Shown one piece after another: positions 42,184-59,300 of a stretch of DNA of 64,000 nt (within the stretch, counting starts at the first letter, position 1; each line of letters opens with the position of its first letter). The notes under the pieces were generated by a model. That model had not been told where the DNA came from and did no database searches. It saw only the letters and a list, made by a program, of their open reading frames with translations. Source of the stretch: an uncultured Verrucomicrobia subdivision 3 bacterium (GTDB lineage Bacteria; Verrucomicrobiota; Verrucomicrobiia; Limisphaerales; UBA11358). A program made the translations under genes and the position numbers. The DNA lies in NCBI GenBank assembly GCA_903895255.1, contig CAITTG010000049.1, positions 30,080 through 94,079 on the forward strand. Direction: 5' to 3'.

Positions 42184-42680
42184 TTGGCAGCGTCCGGAAA
42201 TATCAATTGTTTGGCCCAAAAGAAGATAAAGCCAAATCCCGTCCCCGCACGCAATGTTTTTTCAAAAATACCCCGCCCCTGCCGGATAATGTTCCCGAAC
42301 ATCCCCTGGCGATTCGTCCCCTGCGTCCCATCCGTCCTATCCAGCCAGCGGCGCCCACCGCGCTCTGCCCGGCACCCCCGCTGTCAAAAATACCGCCGCC
42401 CGCCCCGAGTGCCCCATCCTCGTGGGCCAGCCGGGTCCACTCCCCGGCGTCAACCCTGAACTCGTAGGAAACGACGTGAGGAGTTTCTGAAATCTTTCCT
42501 GGTCGCTTCTAGAATCGCCATTTCCTGACGCCAAATCACCCTCTCATCGTCAGCTTCAATTCATCTGTAAACCAACGCAAATTAGGTTGATAACCATGAA
42601 ATTTGGAAATAACGTCACCTTATGCGCAAGCATCTTAAACGCTTACTGCGGTCGAATCTCTTTTAGCCAGCACCTTCGCC

Positions 42681-43043
42681 ATGCACGTCGTTATTGCATC
42701 TGTAATGGGAGGTCTCGGAGATGCGGCTGAATTTATCATGCTGAGTTTGTTTGGCCTTGCCTTGTTAACTATGGGCGGCTTTCTCGTGTTTTCTTGGCGG
42801 CGGTGTTCTTTGATTGCGGCTCGTTTTGCTTGGGTGTTTGTTTTCGCTATTGGCGTTCTCTTTGTTAGGCCTTGGTTTTTTTTAGTGCCGCCGTCATCAG
42901 GAGATCCAGACGAGGCCTGCTTTTACCTCATAGGCCGCTTGCTCTGCATGACTTGGGCATCGCTTATTATTGCCACTGTAGCATGCTTTGCCAGAGCGAA
43001 GCGACACCAGCAGTCCAAGCCAGATGCACAAAATGCCACCTAA
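42681..43043 (+). CDS. small hypothetical multi-TM protein (AT-rich islet)
   Basis: 120 aa with 3-4 hydrophobic helices and no recognisable family. Composition is unlike the flanking genes. Confidence 0.5.
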   Translation: MHVVIASVMGGLGDAAEFIMLSLFGLALLTMGGFLVFSWRRCSLIAARFAWVFVFAIGVLFVRPWFFLVPPSSGDPDEACFYLIGRLLCMTWASLIIATVACFARAKRHQQSKPDAQNAT

Positions 43044-43139
43044 ACACTCGTCTGAGCTAGCCCCCATTGGCGCTCTCCCTTCCGCGCACACGGTTCACTT
43101 GGCCCGTCGGCGCAGGCTCAGTTTTTTTCGTTACTCAGC

Positions 43140-43463
43140 ATGATTACATCACAATTATCTAAAAAGTCGTTCTCTAATCGAGCGGCTTGGTTCAGCTTTA
43201 TCACGCCATTGGTGACCTTCGGGCTCACGCTGGTGGTCGCGAAGGTTGCTTTAAATAGCAATACCATGGATGAATATTTACTTGGCGCATTTTGTGTCCA
43301 GGTTGTCAGCCTGATTCTAGGCGTTGTGAGCTTGTTCGGGATACCCAAACATGGTGCGCGGCTTATTGCTTGGAAAGCAGTGATTGGCATTCTAGCCAGC
43401 TGCGGCATGGGAATTTTGATTTTTTTGTTTGCGATAGGAAATGCGTTGGGACGCAATTGTTGA
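43140..43463 (+). CDS. small hypothetical multi-TM protein (AT-rich islet)
   Basis: 107 aa with 3 hydrophobic helices (WFSFITPLVTFGLTLVVA, LGAFCVQVVSLILGVVSLF, IGILASCGMGILIFLFAIG). No family recognised. Confidence 0.5.
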   Translation: MITSQLSKKSFSNRAAWFSFITPLVTFGLTLVVAKVALNSNTMDEYLLGAFCVQVVSLILGVVSLFGIPKHGARLIAWKAVIGILASCGMGILIFLFAIGNALGRNC

Positions 43464-43539
43464 ATTACCATTCTGCCTGACACCACGCTGGCGCCAGCGC
43501 CGATGCCGCCTGCTAATTTTCGTTGCGGGTTCCCGGCGC

Positions 43540-43556
43540 GCGGGTCCGTGACCCGC
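43540..43556. repeat. REP-like 17-nt palindrome, copy C
   Basis: GCGGGTCCGTGACCCGC preceded by CCCGGCGC and followed by AGCATG, as in copy B. Confidence 0.8.
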
Positions 43557-43741
43557 AGCATGCCCGATGGCCGTGTGATGTTAGAATAGAATCCATCTCC
43601 CCGCACCGGAGCGCTCCCACTCGTCCGCTGTCCCCCTTGAATATTGAAGTTTGATGATTCCCTGAAGTTTGGATTTTGAAATTTGAAGTTTCTCCCCCCC
43701 TACCGCATTCATCACGCTGGCCGGCATTCGGTTACCGGCTC

Positions 43742-43758
43742 GCGGGTCCGTGACCCGC
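43742..43758. repeat. REP-like 17-nt palindrome, copy D
   Basis: GCGGGTCCGTGACCCGC in the same orientation, 202 bp after copy C. Confidence 0.8.
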
Positions 43759-43872
43759 AGCCCTCCCGCCTGCCATGTGACCGCTGAATTCAATTCCCCG
43801 TCCTACTTTTCCCTAATGATTGAATTTTGTTTATTCAGGGGGGTGGTGCGTGGAGCTTCCCCCTGCTCCCAT

Positions 43873-43890
43873 CCCCCTCAATTGAGGGGG
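43873..43890. repeat. perfect 18-bp palindrome upstream of the pilus cluster
   Basis: CCCCCTCAATTGAGGGGG, flanked by partly complementary CCCTGC...GCAGGG. It lies ~300 bp upstream of pilM. Confidence 0.6.
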
Positions 43891-44190
43891 GGCAGGGCAG
43901 GGTACCGCCGCCGCCCTGCGGGTGTATATTTCGGTTCTTTGCCCCCGTCTGCCCGACTCCTTCGGGTTGAAATTGCGGCCCAGCTTTCGCTCCGTGGCAA
44001 CCCGTTATTGCCCCCCCACCGGCAATCCCCGGCGCGTCTCATATCCCGTCTCATACAAAATATTTAATACTTTGCATGGTTTCTATTTGACCACCGGCCT
44101 TTTTTCCCGTAATCACCACGGGCAGCCGCCGTGGGATTATGTTTAATAGTTCTTAAGCTCTCCCTTGCGCGGCCCTAAAGCAAAACAGCA

Positions 44191-46029
44191 ATGCTGAACA
44201 CGAAGTCATTTTTGGCGGTGGATTTTGGGGCGGGCAGCCTCAAGCTGGCTGATTTTGAAACCAATGAGGTCGGCGGTCTGCGCCTCAAAAATTTCGCCAT
44301 CAAAGCCCTCGGCCTGGAAGGTTCCCAGGATGCCACCCGCGAAGCCACCGTTGTCAAGGCCCTCCAGGACACCCTCGCCGAACTGGGCCTCAAATCCAAA
44401 AACGTCAACGTCTGCGCCCCCGGCTTTCAAGTCTTTTCCAAGTTCGTCAAACTGCCCCCGGTGGATGCCGCCAAGGTCACCCAGATCATCCAATACGAGG
44501 CCCAGCAAAACGTGCCGTTCCCCCTCGCCGAGGTCGTCTGGGATTATCAAATTCTCGGCGCCGCCGCCAGTGGTGAACTCGAGGTCCTCCTCGTCGCCAT
44601 CAAATCCGACGTCGTCGAAGGCCTGTTTCGCGTGGCCGAAAAAGCCAAGCTGAAATTAACCCTCTGTGACGCCTCCCCGGCCGCCTTGTGCAACGCCTTC
44701 CGCTTCAATTACGGCGATCTGGAAGATTGCACCATGCTCCTGGACATTGGCGCCAAAACCAGCAACCTCCTCTTTTTTGAAAAAGGCAAGGTCTTCTCCC
44801 GCAGCATCAACCTCGGGGCCAATGCCATCACCCAGGATTTTGCCAACGATCAAAAATTAAAATTTCCCGACGCCGAGAAAATCAAAATCGCCGAGGGCTT
44901 TGTCAGCCTCGGCGGTGCTTACGAGGAACCCGAAAATCCGAACCAGGCCGCCATCTCCAAAATCGCCCGCCAGTTCATGACCAAACTGCACATTCAGGTC
45001 AACCAGACCCTGCAGTTCTATCGCGGTCAGCAGGGCGGCACCGCTCCCCAGCGCCTTTTCCTCTCCGGTGGTGCCTCCATCATGCCCTATACGGCCCAGT
45101 TTTTTGCCGAAAAACTGAACATCCCCGTCGAATATTTCAACCCCTTCCGCAACGTCCAGATTGATCCCTCCGTTAATTTGGAGGATCTCTCCCGCGTGGC
45201 TCATTCCCTCGGCGAAGTCGTCGGCCTCGGCCTCCGCAACCTCGCCAACTGCCCGGTGGAAATGAATCTGATGCCCGACAGCACCTTGCGCTGGCAGGCC
45301 TTCAATCAGAAAAAACCCTATTTCCTCGTCACCGTTTTCAGTCTCGTCTTCGTCGCTTTTACCACCGGCTACCTCTTCTCCAAGCTGGCCGATTTCAAGG
45401 CGGATCAGATCGACACGCTCAATCAGCAGATTGCTCCCAAAACCGCCAAGTCCGAGGCCTTCAAGGCCGCCATGGCCAAACTGGCGGAAAAACAAAAACA
45501 AGCCACTCAGATTTCCAATTACCTCTCCCAGCGATACTATTGGGGTGATGTTTGCGCCGAACTGCGCCGGGTCCTCATGGCCTCCGAGGAAAATGTCCGC
45601 GTCAAACTGTCCGCTCAAAAACCCAACGTTGATGTCGGCATCTGGATCGAGAGTATGATTACCGACCCCAATCTGGGCAATGCCGTCGGCGCCCCCGCCG
45701 CTGGTCCCGGCCCGTCCATGATGGGGATTGGCGGTCCCCGTGGCTTCATGGGTCGCGGCATGCCCATGCCCGCCCCGACTCCCGTCCCGGATGCCACCGC
45801 CGCCGCTGCCGGTTCCACCATCCAACTGGTGTGTCGCTCGGTCAATTTGTCCTCCGTGGATCCCTCCGCCAACACCGCCATCGCTTTTGAAGTGCAAAGC
45901 CAGCTCCAAAACAGTCATTTGTTTGATCCCAAGGCCACCGTGCTCTCGCCGACCATCACGACCGACGATGCGACCGGCACCTTCACTTTCGGCATCACCG
46001 TGGCGTTGCAAAATCCTCTGAAATTGTAA
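44191..46029 (+). CDS. pilM: PilM-like actin-fold ATPase fused to a PilN-like TM/coiled-coil segment (Amuc_1101-type)
   Basis: The N-terminus FLAVDFGAGSLKLADFE...QYEAQQNVPFPL...LLDIGAKTSNL...LSGGAS is the PilM/FtsA-like fold. It continues with TM YFLVTVFSLVFVAFTTGYLF and a coiled coil. Confidence 0.8.
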   Translation: MLNTKSFLAVDFGAGSLKLADFETNEVGGLRLKNFAIKALGLEGSQDATREATVVKALQDTLAELGLKSKNVNVCAPGFQVFSKFVKLPPVDAAKVTQIIQYEAQQNVPFPLAEVVWDYQILGAAASGELEVLLVAIKSDVVEGLFRVAEKAKLKLTLCDASPAALCNAFRFNYGDLEDCTMLLDIGAKTSNLLFFEKGKVFSRSINLGANAITQDFANDQKLKFPDAEKIKIAEGFVSLGGAYEEPENPNQAAISKIARQFMTKLHIQVNQTLQFYRGQQGGTAPQRLFLSGGASIMPYTAQFFAEKLNIPVEYFNPFRNVQIDPSVNLEDLSRVAHSLGEVVGLGLRNLANCPVEMNLMPDSTLRWQAFNQKKPYFLVTVFSLVFVAFTTGYLFSKLADFKADQIDTLNQQIAPKTAKSEAFKAAMAKLAEKQKQATQISNYLSQRYYWGDVCAELRRVLMASEENVRVKLSAQKPNVDVGIWIESMITDPNLGNAVGAPAAGPGPSMMGIGGPRGFMGRGMPMPAPTPVPDATAAAAGSTIQLVCRSVNLSSVDPSANTAIAFEVQSQLQNSHLFDPKATVLSPTITTDDATGTFTFGITVALQNPLKL

Positions 46030-46031
46030 AT

Positions 46032-46982
46032 ATGGCCTGGATTAAGCGAAATTTATTCTTCTTCATTGGTGGCGTGGTGGCCTTGGCCTTGCTGGGCGCG
46101 GCGGGCTATTACAATTATACCAATTGGAGCCGCAACTCGGACATGCTGGACAAGCTCAAGGAAATTTACGGCACCCTCGGAGCCCTCAATGACCCCGCTG
46201 CCAACCCGGGCAATGACAAAATCAACAAGATTCAACAAGCCAAGGACCAGACTGCCCAGTTGAAAGACTGGCTCGACCAGACCGCCGTTTGGTTTGCCCC
46301 CATCGCCCCTATTCCGCCCTCCACCCCCGCCGCTCCCGTTTCCAGTGAAACCTACGCCGCCGCCCTCCGCCGCACCATCAGCCTCATGCAGCATGAGGCC
46401 GAGGCCGCCAATGTCGTGGTGCCGCCCGACTACGGTTTCTCCTTCGAGGCCGAGCGCTCTCTGGTCAAGTTTTCCCCCGGCAGTCTCGATGGGCTCGCCG
46501 TGCAGTTGGGCGAGGTGAAATCCATCTCTGAAGTCCTGTTCGCCGCCGGCGTCAATGAATTGCAATCCATTCAACGGGTGCGCGTGTCCGATGATGATGC
46601 CAACGGCCCCCAGGGTGATTATATCGGCGATCAATCCGTCACCAACGACCAGGTGGTCCTTACCCCCTACGTCGTCACCATTCAAAGTTTCGGTCCGGAA
46701 ATTGCCCGCATCTTCTCGGGCTTTGCCGGCTCCCCCCACTGCTTCATCATTAAGAGCATCAATGTGCAGCCCGCCACCGGCAACAACAACGCGCCCGGTC
46801 CAATGGGCCTGCCCCCCGGGCAGGAACCGCGCATGCTGCGCGGCCGGGGCGAATTTCTGCCGCCCATGCAAAACCCGCAGGCGCCGCTCAATGAAAAGGG
46901 CGGCCTGACCACGCTCCTCAAGGAGCAGCTCCTGCACGTCAGCCTGGAAGTTGAAATCGTAAAATTGCAGCCCAAGAATTAA
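46032..46982 (+). CDS. Amuc_1100-like pilus-associated protein (occupies the PilO position)
   Basis: 316 aa with an N-terminal TM anchor, a coiled coil and a Pro-rich insert. The C-terminal strand LLHVSLEVEIVKLQPK resembles the recalled Akkermansia Amuc_1100 (317 aa; ...VFVQVSLNLVHFNQPK). Gene context is the same. The assignment rests on memory, not on a search. Confidence 0.55.
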   Translation: MAWIKRNLFFFIGGVVALALLGAAGYYNYTNWSRNSDMLDKLKEIYGTLGALNDPAANPGNDKINKIQQAKDQTAQLKDWLDQTAVWFAPIAPIPPSTPAAPVSSETYAAALRRTISLMQHEAEAANVVVPPDYGFSFEAERSLVKFSPGSLDGLAVQLGEVKSISEVLFAAGVNELQSIQRVRVSDDDANGPQGDYIGDQSVTNDQVVLTPYVVTIQSFGPEIARIFSGFAGSPHCFIIKSINVQPATGNNNAPGPMGLPPGQEPRMLRGRGEFLPPMQNPQAPLNEKGGLTTLLKEQLLHVSLEVEIVKLQPKN

Positions 46983-46992
46983 GCTTAAGCAA

Positions 46993-47778
46993 ATGGATTT
47001 CATCAAAAAAAATTACGAAAAGGTCATTCTCAGTCTGGTGTTGCTGGGCGTGGTGGGTGCCCTCGTCGCTCTGCCATTTGTCATTCAAAAGGACAAGGAT
47101 GACGTGCAAGCCATGACTGATTCCGTCATCAGCCATCCCGTGAAACCTTTGGACCCCCTGGATCTGAGCACTCAAAACAACACCTTGACCCGGTTGCAAA
47201 ATCCCTACGACCTGGATTTCTCCACCACCAACAAGTTGTTTAACCCGATGACTTGGAAAAAGAATGCCGCTGGCGATTTGATTAAAATCACCACCGGGCA
47301 TGAAATTGATGCCGAGGCCGCCGAAGTCACCAAAATCACCCCCCTCTATCTCATCCTCTCGCTGGAAAATGTCGAAACCAATCTCGAAATTCGTTACGTG
47401 ATTGGCATCGAGCGTCAATTTGTCGCCTCCCGCTCCCAGCGCCATCAAACCACCGTCGCCTCCGTTGGTGAAAAAAAGCCGCTCTTCACCATCACCCAGG
47501 CCAAGGGCGATCCGGTCAACCCGGATGAACTCCTCTTGAAACTGGCCGATACCGGTGAAATCGTTTCCATCGCCAAAGGCAAACCCTTCCAGCGCGCCGA
47601 CGCCTTCACCGCCGATTTAAAATTTGATCCGGAGAAAAAATCCTTTCTTAATCGCTCGGTCGGCGCCGTCTTAACCTTCGGTGAGGAAACGTACAATATC
47701 GTTGCCATTCATCAAAACGAAGTGATACTATCCGCTGAATCAAACCAGAAAAAAACGATTTTGCAATACCCACGATAA
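46993..47778 (+). CDS. hypothetical TM-anchored protein (PilP/Amuc_1099 position)
   Basis: 261 aa with N-terminal TM VILSLVLLGVVGALVALPFVI. It lies between the Amuc_1100-like gene and the secretin. Confidence 0.55.
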   Translation: MDFIKKNYEKVILSLVLLGVVGALVALPFVIQKDKDDVQAMTDSVISHPVKPLDPLDLSTQNNTLTRLQNPYDLDFSTTNKLFNPMTWKKNAAGDLIKITTGHEIDAEAAEVTKITPLYLILSLENVETNLEIRYVIGIERQFVASRSQRHQTTVASVGEKKPLFTITQAKGDPVNPDELLLKLADTGEIVSIAKGKPFQRADAFTADLKFDPEKKSFLNRSVGAVLTFGEETYNIVAIHQNEVILSAESNQKKTILQYPR

Positions 47779-47833
47779 CGTGTAAGCTACTCCCATCCAA
47801 CAGCGCGATTTTACGAAGAACCCGAAACACACC

Positions 47834-50083
47834 ATGACAAAAGCAGTATTCTTGCCGCTCGGCCTCATTTTCCTCCTGGCTGCCGCTTCTCCCGCCTCGG
47901 CCCAGACCAGCCCCACGGATGTCGCCGTCAATGAAGCGGTCCTGCGCCAGTCCTATACCATTGTCCTGCGCCAGAAACTGGTCGCTGCCAAGTCAGCCGA
48001 ATCCAAGGGTGATTTGGTGGACGCCGCCAAGCTCTACCAGGAAGCCACCAGCCTCGCCCAGCAAATCGGCTCCGGTATCGATTTGGAAACCAGCCAGGCC
48101 ATTTCCGGCCTCGCCCGCACCCGTTTGACCCTCGCCCGCCAGGCCGAGGCCGGCCATGATTACCTCGAGGCCGACAAGCAAATCAACCAGGTTTTGCACG
48201 CCGATCCCAAGAATCCCGATGCCCTCGCGCTCAAACAGCAAAACGATCAGTTAATCGCCCAGAGCAAAGGTCACACGCCCGATCAGGCCACTATCGAGCA
48301 AATCCCCATCGTCAAAAATCAAAAAGTTGAGGCCGGTACCCTCGTGCAAGACGGCAAACTTCTCTATGAAATGGGCAAGTTGGAAGAATCCGAGGCCAAG
48401 CTGAAGCAAGCCCTGGCCCTGGACCCGGATAATGTCGCCGCTTTTTACTACCTCAACTTGATTCAACAGGCTCAGTACGCCCGCTCCGTGGCCAACCATA
48501 CCGAGGATACCCAAACCCGCATGCAACAGGTGGAAAAGCAGTGGGTGCTCCCCAAGAATCAGAATTTGATGATTGGCAATCCCTACGCCACCACCAACCT
48601 CGTTTACACTGGCCCCGGGCGTCAGGAAATTGTCAGTAAATTGGATCGCATTCACTTGGACACGGTTTCTTATGACGGCCTCCCCCTGAGCGAAGTGCTC
48701 CGCAGTCTCTCCGAACAGTCCAAAATTCGTGATCCCCAAAAAATTGGCGTAAATTTCCTGATTAACCCCAACGCCGATCTCTCCAGCACCGTGGAAACCA
48801 CCCCCTTGCAGGGTGGCTTCCCAGGCGAGGCTCGCCGCGGTGCGGTGGATCCGGCCACCGGTTTGCCCCAGGCTGATGCCGCCGCCGCCGCTGCGCCCGA
48901 GCAGGTCGATGTCGGTTCCGTGATCGTCAAGCTGAACCTGAATAATGTCAGCCTCGCGGAAGTGCTCGACGCCATTGTTCTCGTCGCCGATCACCCCATC
49001 AAATATTCCATTCAAGATTTTGCCGTCGTCTTCTCTTCCAAAGCCGCCGATGCCGCGCCTCTCTTCATGCGCACGTTCAAGGTGGATGCGAATACCTTCT
49101 TCCAAGGTTTGGAAAGTGTCAATTCCACGACTTTCGGTGGCACCAGCGGTAATGGCAGCAGCAGCGGTGGCGGCGGCGGTGGTGGTGGTGGTGGCGGCGG
49201 CGGCGGTGGCGGCCAGCAAAGCGGCGGAGCCGTGGTTCCCGTCGTTGACATGTCTCCCGGCGCCAGCCAGCTTCGCAACACCCAGAACGGCGGCGGTGGC
49301 GGTGGTCAGCAACAAAATGGCGGCGGTTTCGGCGGTAACACCGGCGGCGGTGCGGCCGGTGGCGCCGGTGGCGCGGCCGGCGGTTGGAACGTCAGCGGTT
49401 CCCAAGGCGGCGTGAATTTCCTCACGGTCAAACGCACCACGGACGAAATGGGCATTGTTGTCCGCAGTTTCTTTGCGGTGATGGGCGTCAATCTTAATCC
49501 GCCCAAAGCCCTGTTCTTCAATGATCGTCTCGGCTTGCTCTTCGTCAAGGCCACCGAATCCGACTTGGACACCATTGAACGCGCCATTGAGACCTTGAAC
49601 CAGCTCTCCCCGCAGGTTCATATCAAAGCCCGCTTCATCGAAGTGCAGCAAAATGACAGCACCGCGCTGGGTTTTGACTGGTATTTGGGCCAGTTCGGTG
49701 GTTCCGTGGTCGCCCAGGGCGGCACCGCCCCCTCTTTGAACACCGGCTCTGTCTCTGGCGCCAATCCCGTCGGCGCCTTTCCCGGCACCTCCGCCGCGAC
49801 CACCATCGCCCCTGCGGCCACCGACCAGTTGATTACCGGCGGCTTGCAAAACTCCGGCCCCACCGTCGGCACCATCACCGGCATTTTGACCAACCCCAAT
49901 TTCCGGGTTGCCATCCACGCGCTGGAACAGCGCTCCGGGGTGGAGGCCCTGGCCGAACCCGAGGTCACCACCACCAGCGGTCGCCAGACCCAAATGCGGG
50001 CCACCTCCCTCATCACCGTCGTAACCGGCGTTAACTTCCAGCAGGGCAACCCCGGCTCCACCACCGGCACCACCACCCCCTGA
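47834..50083 (+). CDS. secretin (PilQ/GspD family), N-terminal fragment: TPR-like region, N-domains, Gly-rich linker and first half of the secretin domain
   Basis: Signal peptide. The secretin core begins at VHIKARFIEVQQNDSTALGFDWYL...FRVAIHALEQRSGVEALAEPEVTTTSGRQTQM. The ORF stops at TGA 50081-50083, before the conserved C-terminal half. Confidence 0.85.
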   Translation: MTKAVFLPLGLIFLLAAASPASAQTSPTDVAVNEAVLRQSYTIVLRQKLVAAKSAESKGDLVDAAKLYQEATSLAQQIGSGIDLETSQAISGLARTRLTLARQAEAGHDYLEADKQINQVLHADPKNPDALALKQQNDQLIAQSKGHTPDQATIEQIPIVKNQKVEAGTLVQDGKLLYEMGKLEESEAKLKQALALDPDNVAAFYYLNLIQQAQYARSVANHTEDTQTRMQQVEKQWVLPKNQNLMIGNPYATTNLVYTGPGRQEIVSKLDRIHLDTVSYDGLPLSEVLRSLSEQSKIRDPQKIGVNFLINPNADLSSTVETTPLQGGFPGEARRGAVDPATGLPQADAAAAAAPEQVDVGSVIVKLNLNNVSLAEVLDAIVLVADHPIKYSIQDFAVVFSSKAADAAPLFMRTFKVDANTFFQGLESVNSTTFGGTSGNGSSSGGGGGGGGGGGGGGGGQQSGGAVVPVVDMSPGASQLRNTQNGGGGGGQQQNGGGFGGNTGGGAAGGAGGAAGGWNVSGSQGGVNFLTVKRTTDEMGIVVRSFFAVMGVNLNPPKALFFNDRLGLLFVKATESDLDTIERAIETLNQLSPQVHIKARFIEVQQNDSTALGFDWYLGQFGGSVVAQGGTAPSLNTGSVSGANPVGAFPGTSAATTIAPAATDQLITGGLQNSGPTVGTITGILTNPNFRVAIHALEQRSGVEALAEPEVTTTSGRQTQMRATSLITVVTGVNFQQGNPGSTTGTTTP
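49166..49213 (+). repeat. (GGY)16 trinucleotide tract encoding Gly16 inside the secretin linker
   Basis: ggt ggc ggc ggc ggt ggt ggt ggt ggt ggc ggc ggc ggc ggt ggc ggc. Further Gly/Gln/Asn-rich sequence follows. Confidence 0.9.
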
Positions 50084-50106
50084 TGAAACCCTCGCCGGCA
50101 TTATTA

Positions 50107-50256
50107 ACTTGTGATTTACCAATACTGGAATCCCTTACTTGTGATTTGCCAATACTGGAATCCCTAACTTGTCATTTACCATTACTGGAAACCTTAACTT
50201 GTGATTTACCAATACTGGAATCCTTAGCTTGTCATTTACCATTACTGGAATCCCCC
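50107..50256. repeat. 5 x 30-bp head-to-tail AT-rich tandem repeat
   Basis: Units: ACTTGTGATTTACCAATACTGGAATCCCTT / ...TTGCC...CCCTA / ACTTGTCATTTACCATTACTGGAAACCTTA / ...TCCTTA / GCTTGTCATTTACCATTACTGGAATCCCCC. There are no spacers. Confidence 0.95.
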
Positions 50257-50291
50257 GTATTTTCTACATTTTCTTAATTTTTTGGCGAAAT

Positions 50292-50948
50292 ATGAAAAGA
50301 TTTTATCAACCCAAGTTAATCACCCCCCTCCTCCCCCTCTGCGCCGTTCTGGTATCCGCTCCAGCAATGGCTCAGGTGGTGCAACAGGCAGTTCAAACCT
50401 CCGCCATTACCTTCACCACCCAAACGGTTGAAACCGGTCCGATTTTGGACGTTGTCCCCTATGTTTTGTCTGATGGCTACACAATCAACCTCACACTCAT
50501 CCCCAACTTGACCGAATTTAACGGGTACGATACGCCGCCAAATATTCCAAGCGTAACGGGAAACCTCAACGTGGTTCAACTGCCAATTGTATTGCCAAAT
50601 TTTTCAGTACGTGAAGTTGTCACCACGGTTAACGTATGGGATAACCAAACAGTGGTTCTTGGCGGTCTGATTTCCTCATCAATTCAAACCACCAAGGACA
50701 AAGTGCCCGTGCTGGGTGATTTGCCCATGCTGGGCACGCTCTTTCAAAGCCAAAGTAAAACTGCAATCAAAAATAATCTGATGATTTTTGTCACTTCATC
50801 AATTGTAGATCCTGCTGGTAACCGCGTGCATTCTGATGATGAATTGCCTTTTGCGCAAACCGGGATTCCACCGCAGCCACCGAACTCGAGCCATATTTCT
50901 GAGACGGTGGAAACTGTGCATTCTCTGCCTAGTGCCCCTAATAATTAA
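50292..50948 (+). CDS. secretin C-terminal half as a separate ORF with its own signal-peptide-like N-terminus
   Basis: MKRFYQPKLITPLLPLCAVLVSAPAMAQ, then ...TGPILDVVPYVLSDGYTINLTLIP...VWDNQTVVLGGLI...KVPVLGDLPMLGTLFQS...NLMIFVTSSIVDP, the canonical secretin C-terminus. Codon use is AT-richer. Confidence 0.8.
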   Translation: MKRFYQPKLITPLLPLCAVLVSAPAMAQVVQQAVQTSAITFTTQTVETGPILDVVPYVLSDGYTINLTLIPNLTEFNGYDTPPNIPSVTGNLNVVQLPIVLPNFSVREVVTTVNVWDNQTVVLGGLISSSIQTTKDKVPVLGDLPMLGTLFQSQSKTAIKNNLMIFVTSSIVDPAGNRVHSDDELPFAQTGIPPQPPNSSHISETVETVHSLPSAPNN

Positions 50949-50972
50949 TGTTCAGTCTGATTATTTTTTATT

Positions 50973-51856
50973 GTGGGGCGATTGCTGATCATAGACGGTC
51001 ATGCTTACGCTTACAGGGCGTTTTTTGCAATTCGTTCTTTGAGGGGGGGGGTGGGGGGGCGACGAATGCGATTTTCGGATTTATTAAAATCGTTGAAAAA
51101 TTGCTAAAATCCCTGAAACCAGAGTATCTGGCGGTGGTGTGGGACGGGGGTTTGAGCGCGGAACGGTTGGTTTTGCTGCCGGAATACAAGGCGCAGCGGC
51201 CGGCGATGCCGGATGATTTGCGGGTGCAATTTGATCCGATCATCGATTATTTGCGGGCGATGGGATTTTGTTCCCTGTGCCGGGATGGCGTTGAGGCGGA
51301 TGACTATATTGCCAGCCTGGCGCGGCAGGCGGAACGCTCGGGTTTGGCGGTGGTGATCGCCAGTGCGGACAAAGATTTTATGCAGTTGGTCTCGCCGGCC
51401 ATCGGGTTGTCCAACCCGAATGACAAGACCAACCGGATTTGGACGCGGGTGGAAGTCCGGGAAAAGACCGGGGTGGAACCGGAACAGATTGTGGACTGGC
51501 TGAGTTTAATGGGCGACGCGGTGGACAACATACCCGGTGTGCCAGGGGTGGGGCCAAAAAGGGCCGCAGAGCTGCTGGGCCAATTTGGCTCGGTGGCTGG
51601 TTTGTTGGAACGCATGGGCGAAGTCAAGCCCGCAGGCTTGCGTGAACGGGTGACCGCGGCGGCGGCGGTGATTCGCCGAAATTTGGAAATGGTGCGGTTG
51701 CGGGACGATTTGCCCTGTGAAATAGTGGCCAGCCATTGCCGGATCGGGGTTCCAGCGGTGGATAAATTGCGTGAATTGTACGGGCGATGGGAATTTAAGG
51801 GCATGCTGGCAGCGTTGGATGCAGCCGCGCCCGGCGGACAGCAGATTTTAATTTGA
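50973..51856 (+). pseudogene. stand-alone 5'-3' exonuclease (Pol I N-terminal/FEN-like) with an apparent 1-nt frameshift in a G9-T-G7 tract
   Basis: GTG 50973 gives VGRLLIIDGHAYAYRAFFAIRSLRGGVGG in one frame. From 51059 the adjacent frame gives ATNAIFGF...GVEADDYIASLA...SADKDFMQLV...GDAVDNIPGVPGVGPKRAAELL. One extra G would join them. This could be a homopolymer sequencing error. Confidence 0.75.
51043..51059. repeat. homopolymeric G9-T-G7 tract
   Basis: GGGGGGGGGTGGGGGGG read directly from the sequence, at the frameshift site. Confidence 0.95.
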
Positions 51857-52001
51857 AATGAGTGCGCAGAATTGTGAAAGTTCGGGGTGGGTGCTGGCAA
51901 AGGCCCGGACCCGGTTGTTGATACAGCCGGTTCCGCCTATTTGCATGGTAAGTTTTGGACAAACCCCCAAAGTTACATTACCTTTTAATATTAACTCTTT
52001 T

Positions 52002-53972
52002 ATGTCGTTGTCGAAGCTGGCCTGTGTGGCTGCCTTGCTCCTTGGCGGTGTCGTCAATTTGGCGTTGTCGTGCCAGGGCCAGACGAATTATTATTCGGCC
52101 AGTGGTTCGGAGTACGCCCCGGTGGGTTCGCTGCCGGGCGATCAAATGTTTCCGGATGCGGCCATCACCCCGACGGGTGGTTTTGTGGTATGGCAGGATA
52201 ATCGCACGGATGGCAGTGGTTGGGGGATCAGTGCGGAACGTTTGGACAGCACCTTCAACGGCACTTTAAGTTCCTTCCGGGTGAATGTGCAGGGAACGAA
52301 TGACCAGGAAAACGCCCGGGTGGCGCTGTTAAAAAATGGCGGGGCGGCGTTTGTGTGGCAGGGGGGCTTGCGGGGAAAACAGCATATTTATGCCCGTTTT
52401 CTCACGCCGACAAACACTTGGTTGACCAAGACCGACCTGGTGGTGAGCACTTTTACCAATACGTTTCAAATCAACCCGGCTCTGACGGTGCTCAATAACA
52501 GCAATGTCGTGGTGGTTTGGGCCAGTTACAATCAAGCGGGTGGCAAAAGCTTGCTGGATGTTTATGGTTCGATTCTCTCCCCCACCGGGCTGGTGGTGAG
52601 CAATGCCTTTTTAATCAATCAATTTACCAATTACAATCAACGCACGCCAGCCGTGGCGGCTTTGGCCAATGGCGGGTTTGTGGTGACCTGGGTATCGGAG
52701 CAGCAACGGAACCCGGCGATTTCCAGTGGCAGCCAGGCGGCGGTTGCCGCCAGCATCGTTTCACCGAGTGTGGATATTTATGCCCGGCTTTACCGCAGCA
52801 ACGGGCTGGCGGTGGCCGGAGAATTTTTGGTGAACAGCAACCTGGCACCGTGTGCGAATCCGAGTGTGGCCGGGGCCGCGGATGGCAGTTTCATGATCGC
52901 CTGGTCCCAGCACGATCCGTTGATGGCGACGAATGGTTGGGATGTGTTTGCCCGGCCTTATTCCAGCAGCGGAGCCGGCGGCCCGGTGGTGCAGGTCAAC
53001 CAGCAGGCTTATGGTGATCAATACGCCCCGAAAATGAAAGCGATTGGATTGGATTACCTGGTGGTGTTTACGAGCTTGGGCGAGGATGGTTCGCGGGAGG
53101 GTGTGTTTGGCCAGTTCGTTCATGCCAACGGAGCTTTGATTGGCAGCGAATTTCAGGTCAACACGACCTGGGTGGGGCAGCAAATGCAACCGGCGGTGGC
53201 TGCGGATGGCACCGCTTGGTTTGCGGTGGTTTGGACCAGCTACTCCGGTCCGACAGTCGGGTTTGATCTATACGCGCAGCGCTACGCGAACGTTTCCGCG
53301 ATTTTGCAGCCGATGGGGACGCCGTTTGTTTACGCGCCGTTTAACCTGGTTAGCAACAAATATGTGCCCCAGTTAAAGGTTTCCTGGCCCCCGGTTCTGG
53401 GGATTGCGGTGACTAATTACGAGGTTTATCTGGACGGATCCGCCAGCGCCATCACCAATTGGCTGGGCACCACCAATCAATGGACGATGGGAGTGGCAAA
53501 TGGTTTGACCAACGGGGCGACGCATTCGTTCCAAGTGGCCTATCAGACCACGGATGGCCGCCAGTCGCCCCTTTCGCCGGCAGCCACCGCCGCTGCCTGG
53601 ATGGGATTAAATTATCACGGGATACCGGATGAATGGATCAGTTATTATTACGGTGACGCCAGCGCCGGCTGGCCGACAAATGTAAATGCACCGTTGATCC
53701 CGGGTGGCATGAGCCTTTACAACGTGTTCCTGAGTGGCGGGGATCCGACGGATGCCTCCACCTGGCTGACGACATACCTGACGAAGGGGGCCGGGGGGCT
53801 GTACTTGAACTGGAATCCCCAGCCGGGTTTGACTTATCAAGTGCAAACGACCAGTGATCTACGGAACTGGATTAATTTGGGTTCCCCGCGCTTTGCGGCG
53901 GCCACCACGGATTCAATTTTTGTCGGCGGCACACCGGTTGGTTATTACCGGGTGTTGTTGCTACGCCAATGA
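52002..53972 (+). CDS. secreted protein: seven ~50-aa propeller-like repeats, an FN3-like domain and the C-terminal YYRV module
   Basis: ATG 52002 gives the signal peptide MSLSKLACVAALLLGGVVNLALS. Seven repeats follow the pattern EF.VN...Q..PAVA...G.FVV.W.S....DV(Y/F)A(R/Q)(L/R)(Y/F). It ends in ...VQTTSDLRNWINLGSP...GYYRVLLLRQ. Confidence 0.75.
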   Translation: MSLSKLACVAALLLGGVVNLALSCQGQTNYYSASGSEYAPVGSLPGDQMFPDAAITPTGGFVVWQDNRTDGSGWGISAERLDSTFNGTLSSFRVNVQGTNDQENARVALLKNGGAAFVWQGGLRGKQHIYARFLTPTNTWLTKTDLVVSTFTNTFQINPALTVLNNSNVVVVWASYNQAGGKSLLDVYGSILSPTGLVVSNAFLINQFTNYNQRTPAVAALANGGFVVTWVSEQQRNPAISSGSQAAVAASIVSPSVDIYARLYRSNGLAVAGEFLVNSNLAPCANPSVAGAADGSFMIAWSQHDPLMATNGWDVFARPYSSSGAGGPVVQVNQQAYGDQYAPKMKAIGLDYLVVFTSLGEDGSREGVFGQFVHANGALIGSEFQVNTTWVGQQMQPAVAADGTAWFAVVWTSYSGPTVGFDLYAQRYANVSAILQPMGTPFVYAPFNLVSNKYVPQLKVSWPPVLGIAVTNYEVYLDGSASAITNWLGTTNQWTMGVANGLTNGATHSFQVAYQTTDGRQSPLSPAATAAAWMGLNYHGIPDEWISYYYGDASAGWPTNVNAPLIPGGMSLYNVFLSGGDPTDASTWLTTYLTKGAGGLYLNWNPQPGLTYQVQTTSDLRNWINLGSPRFAAATTDSIFVGGTPVGYYRVLLLRQ

Positions 53973-53978
53973 TTTTGT

Positions 53979-56330
53979 ATGCAGCGAATAATTAAAAAAT
54001 GTTTTTGGATGTTCGTGTTGGCGGCTGGCTTGCAAAGCAGCCGGGCCTTCTCCCTGTTGGGGCCGGAGACGCCCTCCAATGGCGCGGACAACTGGCAGAC
54101 GGCGGTGATTGGTTATCATCTGGCCTATGCGGACAGCAGCATTCCAGGCGGGCCGATGTATCTGGGTGATATTGGCGGGCCCCGGAACCTGGGTGAGGAA
54201 TACCGCCGCAATGTGCCGATTGTGTATTACACTTACGACACGAGCTTTTTGGGGTTTTTCGGATCGAATGGCGTGGCGGCCGTGGACAGCGCGGTGGCTT
54301 TGATGAACACCATTACGAATGTGGATCAAATTGACCCCTCGCAATACCCACTGGACTCCCAACAATACAACTATGAGGCGGAGGCTTTGTATCTGACCGA
54401 TTTAAAATCAACCGCGCTCCATTTGCTGGTGGAGCAATTGGGCCTGGCCCAACCGGAGCGCTTCACTTACACGCTGCAAGAGCGGATTTTGCCGCCGGGC
54501 GGAAAATGCCCGGTCAACGAGGAATATTTGGTGGTCCAACGGAATTATGAATACACCAACACCGCGCTGAACCAAATTCAGTATTCGAGCTATGTGAACA
54601 ACGTGCTCTATACCTATGAAATTTTGGAGATTTGCAGCGGCCCTGATCCGCTGGCGGTAACGCTGCCGTTTTCGGTGGACCCGCTGGGCGACCAGTACAC
54701 GGCAGTGGCGGACAGCAGTTATGAGCCTTTTGGCGGTCTGCAAATTGGCGGATTTTACAACACGTTCACCCGGGACGACATTGCGGGGTTGAAATATTTG
54801 ATGAGCACCAACAACATCAACTTTGAGCGCGCCACGCCGGGCAGTTTATTGTTTGATGTTTCGACAAATTTCGCGGGCGGCCAGACGTTGTTCCCGGTCA
54901 ACCCTAATGTTCCGTTGGGTGTGGGGACCTACAATTACGGCACCCTTATGGCGGCTGCGGCGGGGACCCCGCCCGCTTTGTTGCAAGCCTTGTTTCCGGG
55001 TTTGGTGGTATCCAGCTCGCAAAATTATTTCATTGTTACGAATGTACCGACCGTGAGCGCCTATTACGGTCCGCCGCCGGCCAAATCACCTTACGGGTCG
55101 CCGCCAGTATTGGTGGTGGTGACCAACTATACGCCCACCCCGTTGCAGCAATATGTGACGAAGTTTGCCAATGTCGTGACGCAATATTCTTCCACGAGCT
55201 CCCCGGCGATTTTGCAAACCATTACCACCGCGCCGCCGGCCAAGTCACCATACGGGACGCCCTCGGTGAGCACCACGAACTACAGCCGGGTGACTTTAAA
55301 CGGGGTGCCTTCGGGCAGCTTTTATATCCTGCCTAATTTTGGAACCAATCTGTGTCCGCCGGGAATTTTGTACACGTTGTTGACCAACGTGATTTACACC
55401 ACCAACCTGATCACCTCGGCCACGACGAATGTGCTGGCGAACACGAACCTGATTACCTCCAGCAATAGTGCTTACTCGACCACGATGAGTTTGATTACCT
55501 GGTACACGAACTACACTTATGTGACCTATGCGGTGAATTGCGCGCAGACGGCGAATGCCACCAGTTTGTACGAGGGCATCCAAGGGGTGCAATTTGTGCG
55601 GGAGGATTATGATTCGTTGCTCGGCCAGTTTTTTCAGCCGGTCACCAATGGATACAGCATGAATGTGGTAACCAACAATCATGTTTACACCCGGCATTTT
55701 GACCGCACGGTGGCAGCTCCCGAGATTTTGTTCACTGCCTATGATTTTGTGGCGGCGAACACCTTCAACGGCACGGTGTCCCGCTCGGTGCCAAACTGGG
55801 ATGAAAGCCAGTTGGTGGCGGGGGGGCTGGCGGGGCCCGGGGTGATTGATCCCGCGGCTAATTTTCAATTCAACGGCAATGGCTCGGCGTTTTGGAACGG
55901 TTATGATGTGAACGATTTCCTCACGCCCGGGGTGGTTTATGGCGAGACCACCCAAGTGCCTTCGCTGGCCTGGGCATCCTTTGATGAATCCACCAACGAC
56001 CCGGTGGTTTACCCCAATGGCACAAGCCTGGCCAACCTGGCGAGCCAGGTGTTGATTCAAGTCACGCCTACCAGCCTGCCAAATGGCACTAATAATGTGG
56101 CCTATTCCGTTCAGTTTAGTGCCAGCGCACCGCGCCTGACCCCGCCATTCACCTGGTCCGCCGGCGGCCTGCCGCCCGGATTGACCATGTCGAGCACCGG
56201 CCTGCTTTCGGGAACGCCCATCAACCAAACCGGGAACTATAACAGTCCACTGGTCTATGACATCACGGTGGTTCTGACGGATGCACTGTCCAATTCCGTG
56301 CAGTGGACCTACCCAATTACAATTCAATAA
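53979..56330 (+). CDS. secreted hypothetical protein with a C-terminal putative-Ig (He_PIG/cadherin-like) domain
   Basis: Signal peptide MFVLAAGLQSSRA. N/T/Y-rich body with the duplicated motif PPAKSPYG(S/T)P. The C-terminus is SLPNGTNNVAYSVQFSAS...FTWSAGGLPPGLTMSSTGLLSGTP. It starts 7 nt after the upstream stop. Confidence 0.7.
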   Translation: MQRIIKKCFWMFVLAAGLQSSRAFSLLGPETPSNGADNWQTAVIGYHLAYADSSIPGGPMYLGDIGGPRNLGEEYRRNVPIVYYTYDTSFLGFFGSNGVAAVDSAVALMNTITNVDQIDPSQYPLDSQQYNYEAEALYLTDLKSTALHLLVEQLGLAQPERFTYTLQERILPPGGKCPVNEEYLVVQRNYEYTNTALNQIQYSSYVNNVLYTYEILEICSGPDPLAVTLPFSVDPLGDQYTAVADSSYEPFGGLQIGGFYNTFTRDDIAGLKYLMSTNNINFERATPGSLLFDVSTNFAGGQTLFPVNPNVPLGVGTYNYGTLMAAAAGTPPALLQALFPGLVVSSSQNYFIVTNVPTVSAYYGPPPAKSPYGSPPVLVVVTNYTPTPLQQYVTKFANVVTQYSSTSSPAILQTITTAPPAKSPYGTPSVSTTNYSRVTLNGVPSGSFYILPNFGTNLCPPGILYTLLTNVIYTTNLITSATTNVLANTNLITSSNSAYSTTMSLITWYTNYTYVTYAVNCAQTANATSLYEGIQGVQFVREDYDSLLGQFFQPVTNGYSMNVVTNNHVYTRHFDRTVAAPEILFTAYDFVAANTFNGTVSRSVPNWDESQLVAGGLAGPGVIDPAANFQFNGNGSAFWNGYDVNDFLTPGVVYGETTQVPSLAWASFDESTNDPVVYPNGTSLANLASQVLIQVTPTSLPNGTNNVAYSVQFSASAPRLTPPFTWSAGGLPPGLTMSSTGLLSGTPINQTGNYNSPLVYDITVVLTDALSNSVQWTYPITIQ

Positions 56331-56335
56331 ACGGT

Positions 56336-59300
56336 ATGGCAATTAATTTATACTCTGCGGTTGGTGGAAAATCCCGGCTTAACAGGTTGGTGTGGAGCTC
56401 CATGCTGGGGGTGCTGCTGACGGTGACTGGATTCGCCGCGACGCCGGCCCCACAATACCTCAATGGATTTGATAATTCCTATAATATTCCGGGCAGTCCC
56501 CCCCCGACCATTTTCACAACCAATTTCGACAACGAGGCGCTGTTTAGCATCAATTTTTCCACCTATAATTCCAGCAAGCCCAGCCAGTATTATGAGCCGA
56601 GCTATGTGTTGAATTACACCAACGGGGAGAACGGGGTCATGACGGTAAACAATCCGATCAACATCAACCAGGTGTTGGCGGTTTATAACATTGGTTTTAA
56701 TTTTGACCAGGGTTCGACCGTGAACGGGATTCCGGCGGGAAGCTTTTACAATCAGGGAACCATCCGGTGCAATTCGCTCGTGGATGGAAACAACCTCTTC
56801 ACGGTAGGCGGTTTTACATTCTACGATATTCTTGGTTATGGCATTTGCAATGTCAGTGCCACCAATATTGTCAATCCCGGCAATATCATCGCCAGCGTCA
56901 ACGGGGCTATTACTCTGAACGGTCAAAATGTGGATTTGAACCGGGGGGTTTTCAATATTGAATCGCTGCAAACCACCAACGGGCTGATTTTTGGCAACAC
57001 CTTGTTGAATGCCTTGAATCTTAACAGCACCGGAGCGGTGGGATTGGACACCAATGCGGATTGGAATCCAGGGGCTGATTTGGGCCCGAACTCGGCGATC
57101 AGCTCGTTTGTCCCGATTCCAAATTATTATTTAATCCTCACGAATTCGACCTCCTATTTTCGCACGGACGGGTTGGCCACGAGCAACGTGATTTACCGGG
57201 CGGTGTTTGTGCAGAATGACAGTCCCAATGCTCCTTATAACGTTTATATCGACCCTCCGAACCAGACTTATCCAGGTCTGAATCCGGGGGCGGCCCATGT
57301 GGAATGGGTGGGTTCCTACATTGATCCGGCCACCGGGTTAAGTTCCTCCAATTATCTTTATTTGACGGATGATTACGCGCTGGGGGCGACGACCAACGCG
57401 GGCTTGACGCTTTTACCCGTGAATGCCGGCACGGGGGTGCCCGCAAACTTTAGTTTTGTCACCTCCCCCCTGCCGTTGTTTGCCAATCCGACCCCGGCTG
57501 GGTTTCTAAACATCTTCACCGCTGGTAATATCACCAATTTTTATTCGTACATGAACGGACAGATTATTCCATCCACGGTGTCGACCAATGTCACTCTGAC
57601 CAATCCGCATGGCACCATTCCGAATCTGCCGAGCAAAATCATTATTTCGGGCAGCCAACGATTAAACCTGCAAAATGCGATTATTAGCGGGGAAAACTAT
57701 CTGGCCCTGACCGCGACCAATCAATTTGACGGCAGCGCGGGCGCCCAGATTGCGGCGCCATTCTCAGACATTAATTTGGCAGTAACGAATGGCAACTTGG
57801 TGTTCACGAACGTGCTGGAGTCCGACATTCCCAATTGGGGCGGCACGATTCAGGCCTGGAGCACCCGCTGGACGAATACGGACACAGTTACGGGCATTAG
57901 CTATGATTACCGAGTTTTGCTGGTTTACAGCAAGTTGCAACCGACGACGGTTCCGTTTGTCAACAATCTGCGACTGAGCGCCGGCACAAACCTTTTCATT
58001 AGCGACGTTTTGAATGTTTACGGAACGTTTTTCACGGATGCCCAGCGAATGACCGTGACCACGAACGGTGTCGGGGTGGGGGCGACTTCAGCCGAGGGCC
58101 AGTTAAACACGATTTTCCCGGGAAATCTGGGTCTGACCCAATGGCCCAACCTGCGTTGGGTGACCAACAATGGCACCATCGGGGCGCAGGGCGCGGTGAG
58201 TTTTACCAACGTGAATAATTTTGGCGCGGTGATTAACAACGGGGTGATTGCGGATGCTGGCACCACGGTGTTGGCCACGAACTTTGTTAACAGCGGGACG
58301 ATTAGCAATGGCACGGGTAATTTAAATGTCCAGTGTCAGACCGCGACCCTGACCAACTCCTACGTTTATGCCGGTGGCGGCATAACACTGGTTGGAAAGA
58401 GCCTGCTGGCGAGCAATGTGTGGTTCCAGTCCCTATCCCTGAGTTTAAATCCCAGCAATTCGCTGGGTGACGGCGTTCCGATTCCGGGCAATTACATTCC
58501 ATACGGGGAAATTACCAATTACGGGGATAACACTTGGGTGGTGGGGCGTCCCAACGGCACGGGTGGCAGCGGGTTCTCCCTGTTGAGCAACCCGCATAAT
58601 GGTGATTTTCTGGGGACGACGATTTCGAACACAGTGCCACCGGCCAATAAACTGGCCGCCAACATTTGGGCGGCCCAGGATTACGGTGCCATTAACCGTG
58701 GTTTCAGCAACAACGCGGCAGTCGGCCGCTTGATCATCGATGTGCAGGGTAACAACAGCCTGGTTACGTTTAACGGGGCGGGCAATGCCATCGGCAACAG
58801 CAATGCGCTCTACGTCGATTATTTGGAATTCCGGGACACGGCCACCAACGGGATTCAAGACAGTTATGACTTCACTAATTGGGTCGCGTTGAATACAAAC
58901 ATAACGATTTATTTTGGACAGGCCTTCATCAATGGCATTTCGGTGGCGGAAAAAATCAATATTGCCAGTCTTTACAATGGTAAAAACGGAGGCAAGGTGT
59001 CGACCAATGGCACCGTTTTGCTGCCCGGCCGGCTGCGCTGGGTGCCCACCTATGCCGGGTACTTTAGCTCCACCAATCTTGTGGTGGACGGGGTGACCAA
59101 CACTGTTAATGCGGCGCTCGCGCAAAGTCAGGACATTGATTCCAATGGCAATGGCGTGGCCAATGGCTTTGATCAGTCGCCGTTTTTTACCGCCCAACAG
59201 ATCAATTTCAGCCTTTCTTTGACTAATCACCCGGTCCGGACGGCCTTGCTCACGTGGGACACCGTGCCCTTTGCGACCAATTCCGTTTTTTATGCCACCA

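Follow-up and report, generated by a model that had tools for sequence, protein, structure and literature searches.

Can the outer-membrane channel of a pilus-like machine be assembled from two separately exported polypeptides, and if so, where in the fold does the break fall? The question is raised by a gene cluster at positions 44191–50948 of a 64,000-nucleotide (nt) stretch of DNA, hereafter the window, from an uncultured Verrucomicrobia subdivision 3 bacterium (Limisphaerales, UBA11358; assembly GCA_903895255.1, contig CAITTG010000049.1, positions 30,080–94,079). The sequence comes from a metagenome-assembled genome (MAG). An earlier note on this DNA had described a cluster with the gene order of the Akkermansia muciniphila Amuc_1101–1098 locus, ending in a single secretin gene. 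Its coordinates for the open reading frames (ORFs) of 612, 316 and 261 amino acids (aa), and for the end of the secretin region at 50948, are exact. The secretin itself is encoded not by one gene but by two ORFs of 749 and 218 aa, 208 nt apart, and on the sequence evidence set out below we argue that they work as a functional two-chain protein. The cluster comprises five co-oriented ORFs, the first four of which are separated by 2–55 nt:

44191–46029, + strand: PilM-PilN-like fusion, 612 aa (Pfam PilM_2, NCBIfam Amuc_1101_fam, TIGR01175)
46032–46982, + strand: Amuc_1100-family protein, 316 aa (NCBIfam NF038287, PF28028 on an identical protein, fold comparison)
46993–47778, + strand: Amuc_1099-position protein, 261 aa (position; PilP slot of a pilMNOPQ-type operon)
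47834–50083, + strand: secretin chain 1 (ORF1), 749 aa (N-terminal part of Amuc_1098_fam, alignment to GspD structures 5zdh and 5w68)
50084–50291, no strand: spacer between ORF1 and ORF2, 208 nt with a tandem repeat of five 30-bp units
50292–50948, + strand: secretin chain 2 (ORF2), 218 aa (Pfam Secretin positions 40–169, C-terminal part of Amuc_1098_fam)

ORF1 opens with a signal peptide (…SPASA↓Q, the arrow marking the cleavage site), followed by a tetratricopeptide repeat (TPR) region at aa ~56–212 and a conserved Amuc_1098-type N-terminal region. Its 3′ part encodes a Gly-rich linker, a Secretin_N-like domain and the beginning of the Pfam Secretin domain (~39 positions), and the chain then ends in a T/G/S-rich tail (…VVTGVNFQQGNPGSTTGTTTP, within the C-terminal sequence …LAEPEVTTTSGRQTQMRATSLITVVTGVNFQQGNPGSTTGTTTP) directly before the stop codon at 50081–50083. 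For ORF2, the mechanically defined reading frame opens at 50229, and the first ATG that is followed by a signal peptide lies at 50292. From this start the chain begins with MKRFYQPKLITPLLPLCAVLVSAPAMAQVVQQAVQTSAITFTTQTVETGPILDVVPYV…, which includes a Sec signal peptide (MKRFYQPKLITPLLPLCAVLVSAPAMA↓Q, nt 50292–50372; …APAMA↓QVV), and the mature protein supplies what would be the return strand of the Gate 1 hairpin and the rest of the C-domain up to the VPVLGDLPMLGTLF motif and the final strand. Against the NCBIfam model of the Amuc_1098 family type IV pilus outer membrane protein (NF042912, cut-off 750 bits), ORF1 covers model positions 18–379 (200 bits) and ORF2 positions 646–804 of 805 (129.5 bits). 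ORF2 also matches Pfam Secretin (PF00263) at positions 40–169 of 169 with 97.8 bits. When the C-terminal 209 aa of ORF1 and mature ORF2 are conceptually joined, the match spans Secretin positions 1–169, as it does in a natural one-piece homolog from a related genome (locus L011). Neither polypeptide by itself holds a complete secretin C-domain, and because the Secretin match is divided between ORF1 and ORF2, the cut lies inside this conserved domain.

Comparison with fused homologs locates the cut further. Mature ORF2 (QVVQQAVQTSAIT…ETGP) aligns directly after a low-complexity loop of the fused proteins. In fused L066 the junction region reads …FQSPPASTSTGGGGTTINNPGPSAIT…, and its split sister L074 aligns with it as an ORF1 tail, …FQQGTAATTTTATQ before the stop, and an ORF2 sequence, …GIVRA↓QVVANPGTSSIT…. 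Elsewhere in ORF1, the Gly-rich linker occupies aa ~437–530 (nt ~49135–49424) between the TPR/Amuc_1098-type region and the N domain; it comprises ~90 residues, including a run of 16 Gly derived from (GGC)n-like repeats. BLAST alignments to relatives are interrupted at this linker, which we thus regard as hypervariable.

Split secretins have a precedent in the Rhc-family type III secretion systems (T3SS), where an N-domain protein and a separate barrel protein are encoded by rhcC1/nolW and rhcC2/y4xJ, a division whose functional significance is unknown (PMC3574062, PMC3973906). Here too secretin function is spread over two genes, with each product presumably exported alone. By analogy, ORF2 alone might form a minimal barrel and ORF1 might act as a periplasmic TPR/N-domain docking or pilotin-like protein, and databases indeed call ORF1-type proteins simply TPR proteins. 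In NGR234 (pNGR234a), NolW/RhcC1 (234 aa) consists only of N0 and Secretin_N, and Y4xJ/RhcC2 (475 aa), encoded ~12 kb from nolW, carries its own N domains together with a complete Secretin domain (positions 1–169 of 169). ORF2, by contrast, is without the first ~39 Secretin positions, including the conserved …AEPEVTTTSGRQTQMRA…VVTG strands, and without the preceding barrel start QVHIKARFIEVQQND…. Both elements are kept in ORF1, where they are as conserved as in the fused homologs. Because the missing barrel strands remain in ORF1, the Limisphaerales break is unlike that of Rhc, in which the barrel module stays whole: the Rhc split separates modules, whereas the Limisphaerales split cuts the barrel/gate module itself, at Secretin profile position ~39/40. 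The two genes are also adjacent here and stand in a type IV pilus-like (PilM/PilO-type) rather than a T3SS context. Separate roles for the two products are, in our judgement, unlikely. We found no description of a split secretin from a type IV pilus system or from Verrucomicrobia in the open-access literature.

The two-gene layout is widespread. Scanning one genome per GTDB species with an alignment of the Amuc_1100-like protein yielded 80 loci, all from MAGs of Limisphaerales or 'Verrucomicrobia subdivision 3' recovered from bogs, lakes and soils (the record title being evidently wrong in a few cases), and the split or fused state was scored by mapping both secretin halves onto stop-to-stop ORFs. 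The secretin is split in ~55 of 65 species-level Limisphaerales genomes and forms a single ORF of 956–1023 aa in eight loci (L011, L018, L025, L046, L047, L066, L073 and L075). Of the 120 top-ranking database homologs of ORF1, 11 are fused (910–968 aa, with PF00263), and the others, of 720–800 aa, have only TPR domains. The nearest relatives share the two-gene layout, L002 and L005 with 71% identity at the Amuc_1100-like protein and a 21-nt spacer, L003 and L004 with 79% identity and a 107-nt spacer. Additional frame breaks occur in three loci. L031 (~13873–14583) carries a fused-type secretin broken upstream of the gate region, and in L015 and L035 ORF1 ends early, ~250–300 nt before ORF2. 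Assembly errors or decay of the copies may explain these cases.

In the 44 split loci that were parsed, ORF1 always ends in FQQG or a similar motif plus 8–15 T/G/S/A-rich residues. ORF2 nearly always begins MK…, typically with 2–5 Lys/Arg, a hydrophobic core and an AxA↓Q-type site, and the sequences of these signal peptides diverge greatly while their features are kept. The spacer has a median length of 21 nt in the same loci, with observed values of 6, 15, 17, 20, 21, 23–26, 30–37, 107 and 208 nt, and the frame relation between the two ORFs varies. Spacers are AT-rich and share no motif across the order; nearest relatives have ~15 nt before the ATG in common, and a survey of 14 loci found Shine-Dalgarno-like motifs in only some of them. 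Both secretin halves are 50–90% identical across the order. Between the window, L002 and L003, the ratio of nonsynonymous to synonymous substitution rates (dN/dS) is 0.02–0.05 for ORF2 and 0.10 for ORF1, compared with 0.05–0.14 for the other cluster genes (0.12–0.14 for the Amuc_1100-family gene, 0.05–0.09 for the Amuc_1099-position gene), all at saturated dS (about 1 or more, or uncomputable). Because the signal peptides are divergent but typical, the spacers are usually ~20 nt long and dN/dS is 0.02–0.10, we argue for a secretin that functions as two chains.

These data bear directly on whether the split gene might be a pseudogene, or a sequencing or assembly artefact of a MAG, with only the upstream cluster genes functional. 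Such errors or slippage do occur in this DNA, since the nearby 5′–3′ exonuclease gene is frame-broken in a G9-T-G7 tract; the fused-type secretin of L031 has a frame break as well, and the window spacer contains an unusual tandem-repeat insertion. The break nevertheless falls at the same residue in ~55 species-level genomes that were assembled independently in different studies, ORF2 always has a start codon and a canonical signal peptide, and the low dN/dS applies to both halves. We therefore consider decay or artefact highly improbable. A single continuous secretin produced by programmed recoding (stop read-through or ribosomal frameshifting) or by protein splicing across the junction is hardly credible either. 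In its favour, the ORFs are adjacent on one strand, usually ~20 nt apart, and evolution has converted fused and split forms into each other. Against it, spacers range from 6 to 208 nt and the frame relation is variable, the AT-rich spacers have no order-wide motif, read-through would leave a hydrophobic signal peptide of ~28 aa midway along the gate loop, the conserved AxA↓Q site is intelligible only if signal peptidase cleaves a protein with its own translation start, and there is no intein-like insert.

The history of the split was read from a tree of the pilM, Amuc_1100-family and Amuc_1099-position genes and from a tree of the secretin. Both are neighbour-joining trees only, interpreted without a species tree; their deep nodes are weak, and we claim only well-supported nestings. 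Distant full-length homologs (803–1004 aa) are fused and lie outside the ingroup, and within it, fused forms are nested among split ones in both trees. Fused L066 falls within an otherwise all-split clade of 14–15 members (bootstrap 100 / 96) as the sister of L078 (bootstrap 100); fused L011 is sister to split L026 (bootstrap 100 / 89); L047 and L031 group with L082 (bootstrap 65 / 100); and one 15-member clade (bootstrap 100) holds five fused and ten split forms. The most parsimonious history is one ancient fission followed by several re-fusions, the number of events being uncertain. Each re-fusion would have involved the in-frame loss of stop codon, spacer and signal peptide. Repeated independent fissions, all hitting the identical residue and each gaining a new signal peptide, seem much less likely.

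We next considered where the cut would lie in the folded channel. The central gate of secretins, or Gate 1, is a long hairpin between two conserved glycine pivots, spanning residues 466–496 in XcpD, with the tip at 477/480 (PMC10550240), and G267–G297 in pIV (PMC8563730); its tip is variable, often disordered and directed to the pore centre (PMC10550240, PMC8563730). In a HMMER alignment of the joined chains to GspD of enterotoxigenic Escherichia coli (ETEC; 5ZDH, 5W68), …MRATSLITVVTGVNF..QQGNPGS falls on …MVGQDVPVLTGSTVGSNNSNPFN, the aligned pair being rqtqmratslitvvtgvnf..qqgnpgs and, for ETEC GspD, qeaffmvGqdvpvltgstvgsnnsnpfn. The glycine of VGQxVP was assigned as pivot 1 because the pIV sequence, which we take to be …VGQNVPFITGRVTGESANVNNPFQTIERQNVGI…, reproduces the published numbering (N269, R293, N295 and G297 relative to G267). 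On this assignment, ORF1 would stop ~25 residues past the pivot-1 position and mature ORF2 would start ~21 residues ahead of pivot 2, the glycine of ETGP. Compared with pIV or XcpD, the gate loop would have ~16 extra residues and would be cut near its tip. Both cut ends would then face the periplasmic lumen, which fits two Sec-exported chains that complement each other's sheet.

Taken together, we favour, with moderate confidence, a model in which, in most sampled Limisphaerales, two secreted chains complete one barrel with a break at the Gate 1 tip, a state that arose by a single fission and was reversed several times. Chain 1 would end in a flexible Thr/Gly/Ser-rich tail aligned to the tip of the Gate 1 hairpin. 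Chain 2 would be exported by Sec on its own and cleaved after AxA, and its mature N-terminus would resume where the fused homologs continue past the loop. The two chains would co-assemble by β-sheet complementation into the usual double-walled barrel, leaving the central-gate hairpin of each protomer 'nicked', with two free ends projecting into the pore.

The remaining proteins of the cluster suggest the machine to which this channel belongs. The 612-aa protein has a cytoplasmic actin-like PilM domain (aa 10–350), a transmembrane (TM) segment at aa ~372–394 and a periplasmic coiled-coil/low-complexity tail. It matches Pfam PilM_2 (E 9e-39) and TIGR01175 pilM (144.4 bits, above the cut-off of 133), and reaches 475 bits against the NCBIfam model 'Amuc_1101 family PilM-like pilus complex protein', below the cut-off of 650. 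With this match and that of the secretin to Amuc_1098_fam flanking the 316-aa gene, the Akkermansia-like gene order described in the earlier note is borne out.

The same note had likened the 316-aa protein to Amuc_1100, and similarity to Amuc_1100-family models was indeed found. NCBIfam NF038287, 'Amuc_1100 family pilus-like protein', matches residues 1–246 with E 8.2e-12, at a score of 45.2 bits that misses the curated equivalog cut-off of 180. An identical protein in the public databases (P0001) carries Pfam PF28028, 'Amuc_1100'; so do all of the best 120 of 1425 database matches at E ≤ 1e-3, and homologs with 54–57% identity bear the NCBI name 'Amuc_1100 family pilus-like protein'. An AlphaFold model built from a 29-sequence alignment shows an N-terminal TM helix, further helices and two α-β-β units that form a PilO-like core. 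With this model, the top ten PDB matches in Foldseek are all Amuc_1100 (6LAD, 6KNY and 6LAF; E 1e-6 to 9e-6, target TM-scores of 0.58–0.66), followed by PilO of Pseudomonas aeruginosa and Myxococcus xanthus (2RJZ, 5UVR and 3JC8_O). The family is best understood as a PilO-like member of the module.

The 261-aa protein agrees in position and size with Amuc_1099, to which it had been compared, and gives no match to the corresponding model NF042425 at E values up to 1; of 33 orthologs, two match that model weakly (best E 0.0066). It has an N-terminal TM helix and a β-rich C-terminal half, no Pfam or NCBIfam match, and 1149 homologs for which any name given is 'hypothetical protein'. Its AlphaFold2 (AF2) model is confident (predicted local distance difference test, pLDDT, 79.7) and yielded no significant PDB fold match and no detectable similarity to PilP. 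We refer to it as a putative Amuc_1099 equivalent, by position alone.

We conclude with good confidence that the locus encodes the envelope-spanning 'alignment plus secretin' module of a type IV pilus-like machine of the Akkermansia Amuc_1101–1098 type, with its secretin in two chains. In this module, PilM fused to a PilN-like membrane anchor would sit at the inner membrane, with the Amuc_1100-family protein as its PilO-like partner; the 261-aa protein would occupy the PilP slot and link to the secretin, the outer-membrane channel. The A. muciniphila Amuc_1098–Amuc_1102 cluster (Ottman et al. 2017, PMC5332112) shares the family order and likewise has no adjacent pilin or ATPase genes, and Amuc_1100 itself shares length, N-terminal anchor and fold with the 316-aa protein. 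The two clusters differ in that the window has no Amuc_1102-like gene, splits its secretin over two genes and scores below the equivalog cut-offs (45 vs 180, 475 vs 650 and 200 + 130 vs 750 bits). The organisms differ as well, the window stemming from a free-living Limisphaerales bacterium of bog or lake metagenomes. Because this bacterium is environmental and free-living, the TLR2 host-interaction role described for Amuc_1100 cannot be assumed here. With the type IVa pilMNOPQ operons of P. aeruginosa and M. xanthus, the cluster shares PilM, a bitopic PilO-like protein, a small bitopic protein in the PilP slot and a secretin in last place. It departs from them in the fusion of PilM to a PilN-like anchor, in a PilP-slot protein without detectable PilP similarity, and in a secretin with N-terminal TPR repeats, a ~90-aa Gly-rich linker, no Pfam AMIN match and two chains. 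Clusters of this type are widespread in Verrucomicrobiota and already have NCBIfam and Pfam models, to which this locus adds one member. With the Amuc_1100 family so common in environmental Verrucomicrobiota (the 1425 database matches), finding it here is no surprise.

Several observations weigh against our interpretation. All NCBIfam 'Amuc_' scores of the cluster fall under the curated equivalog cut-offs, and the proteins are thus distant family members rather than strict orthologs. Confidence in the AF2 model of the 316-aa protein is low (pLDDT 51.6), and PDB sequence searches with this protein or with its 29-member family profile returned no Amuc_1100 chain. In this secretin family, Thr or Ser (Thr in the window) takes the place of the first pivot glycine, and the Gate 1 assignment draws on one pairwise HMMER alignment, a pivot glycine motif that we identified ourselves and published residue numbers. 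Production, cleavage and co-assembly of the two chains are predictions from the genes, and in this particular genome coupled expression of ORF2 could suffer from the 208-nt spacer with its repeats. Finally, no pilin, ATPase or platform genes were found in the 64-kb window, which leaves the assembly of a fibre conjectural. In agreement with the earlier note, which had reported pilin, PilB/PilT and PilC genes to be missing, neither a prepilin N-terminal motif nor a PilB/PilT-type Walker box occurs in any ORF of at least 50 aa over the 64 kb. No part of a complete type IVa pilus set (prepilins, prepilin peptidase, PilB/PilT, PilC) was found in the window, and Pfam assigned unrelated functions to its large ORFs. 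In type IVa pilus systems, pilMNOPQ-type operons normally stand apart from the pilin and ATPase genes, and the absence of these genes beside the cluster is therefore unremarkable.

The spacer between the secretin genes has features of its own. Its tandem repeat (50105–50254) consists of five copies of the 30-bp unit TAACTTGTGATTTACCAATACTGGAATCCC, AT-rich in a GC-rich genome; the unit occurs nowhere else in the window, nor in any of the fetched relative loci. RNA folding of the spacer gave no structure signal (z = +0.76), and Rfam had no match on the whole window. A 64-aa ORF with LTCDLPILES repeats (50083–50277) overlaps the ORF1 stop (TGATG) and finishes 14 nt short of the ORF2 ATG. We rejected it as a gene and regard it as a by-product of the stop-free 30-bp, or ten-codon, unit.

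Upstream of pilM lies one further feature:

43464–44190, no strand: non-coding leader 5′ of pilM, with two REP-like copies; part of a ~1.6-kb stretch missing in the relative L002

This region had been described as non-coding and repeat-rich. It holds no supported ORF over its ~730 bp, and the second description is modestly true: the leader contains two 51-nt copies of a repetitive extragenic palindromic (REP)-like element (43528–43578 and 43730–43780), short AT-rich direct repeats and one palindrome. Cores of this element, CCCGG.(G/T)CGCGGGTCCGTGACCCGCAGC with a 7-bp stem (GCGGGTC/GACCCGC), occur in four intergenic copies, all on the + strand (7687–7707, 10534–10554, 43539–43559 and 43741–43761), two flanking a GH43 gene and two upstream of pilM. 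In L002 only 330 bp separate the acylphosphatase gene from pilM; the window is ~1.6 kb longer here, with a stretch of lower GC (42220–43470) that L002 lacks. This stretch includes two small ORFs with several TM segments, 42681–43043 (120 aa) and 43140–43463 (107 aa), neither with a family match; given these, and the mere 330 bp in L002, the reported lack of an Amuc_1102-like gene also holds. Overall, GC content is ~0.62 over the first 42 kb of the window and ~0.51–0.57 from 42 to 64 kb (one 2-kb bin, 0.60), and the cluster lies in the lower-GC part.

Other genes in the window encode an RND efflux pump, GH43, RecO, a ParA-like ATPase, a helicase, a CCA/polyA polymerase, an exosortase, a heptosyltransferase, a metallophosphoesterase, an acylphosphatase, the 5′–3′ exonuclease, three giant proteins with PATR (passenger-associated transport) repeats and three large proteins without a family. 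The exonuclease gene (50948–51856) is broken near 51040–51060, within the G9-T-G7 tract (51043–51059): one frame encodes the canonical N-terminus, …GRLLIIDGHAYAYRAFFAIRSLRGG, and another …GGATNAIFGFIKIVEK…, and the L003 ortholog is continuous (…RAFYAIRTLRGPDGRATNAIFGF). The break could be a homopolymer sequencing error or real slippage. Pfam assigns no family to the three large proteins (704, 783 and 1050 aa), and a He_PIG match occurs in one ortholog; they follow the secretin and exonuclease genes in conserved synteny (window 51858–59455; L002 15666–19701; L003 7605–12689). The PATR giants (1311, 1292 and 1629 aa) are consecutive and share the C-terminal motif …TNL.LP…W…GNFD..GN…YFL(L/M)Q.., which may represent a sorting-signal family; an exosortase gene of the EpsH family lies close by, and together these genes occupy 21226–34560 and 36842–38542.

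The cluster itself being already catalogued, the newly added point is a secretin, conserved in its two-chain form, whose break falls in the loop aligned with the central gate. For annotation, the consequence is that pipelines see neither the N-chain nor the C-chain as a complete secretin. IMG and NCBI records label N-chains of 720–800 aa 'tetratricopeptide (TPR) repeat protein' or 'hypothetical protein' and C-chains of ~220 aa 'GspD/PulD (secretin)', and neither is recognised as half of one secretin. The locus also counsels caution against reading host interaction into Amuc_1100 homologs; the family resembles the PilO part of an ordinary envelope apparatus. In evolutionary terms, the secretin offers a clear case of gene fission, in which a new gene with its own signal peptide arose and was then repeatedly re-fused. 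It is of some interest to specialists in secretins and pili. Secretins are model giant gated channels, sealed and opened by Gate 1, and a cut at the Gate 1 tip, if correct, would show which covalent links assembly and gating need. The gate would be formed by free chain ends, continuity of the hairpin would be dispensable and protomers would assemble from fragments, which would make the Limisphaerales proteins a ready-made two-fragment system for studies of secretin assembly.

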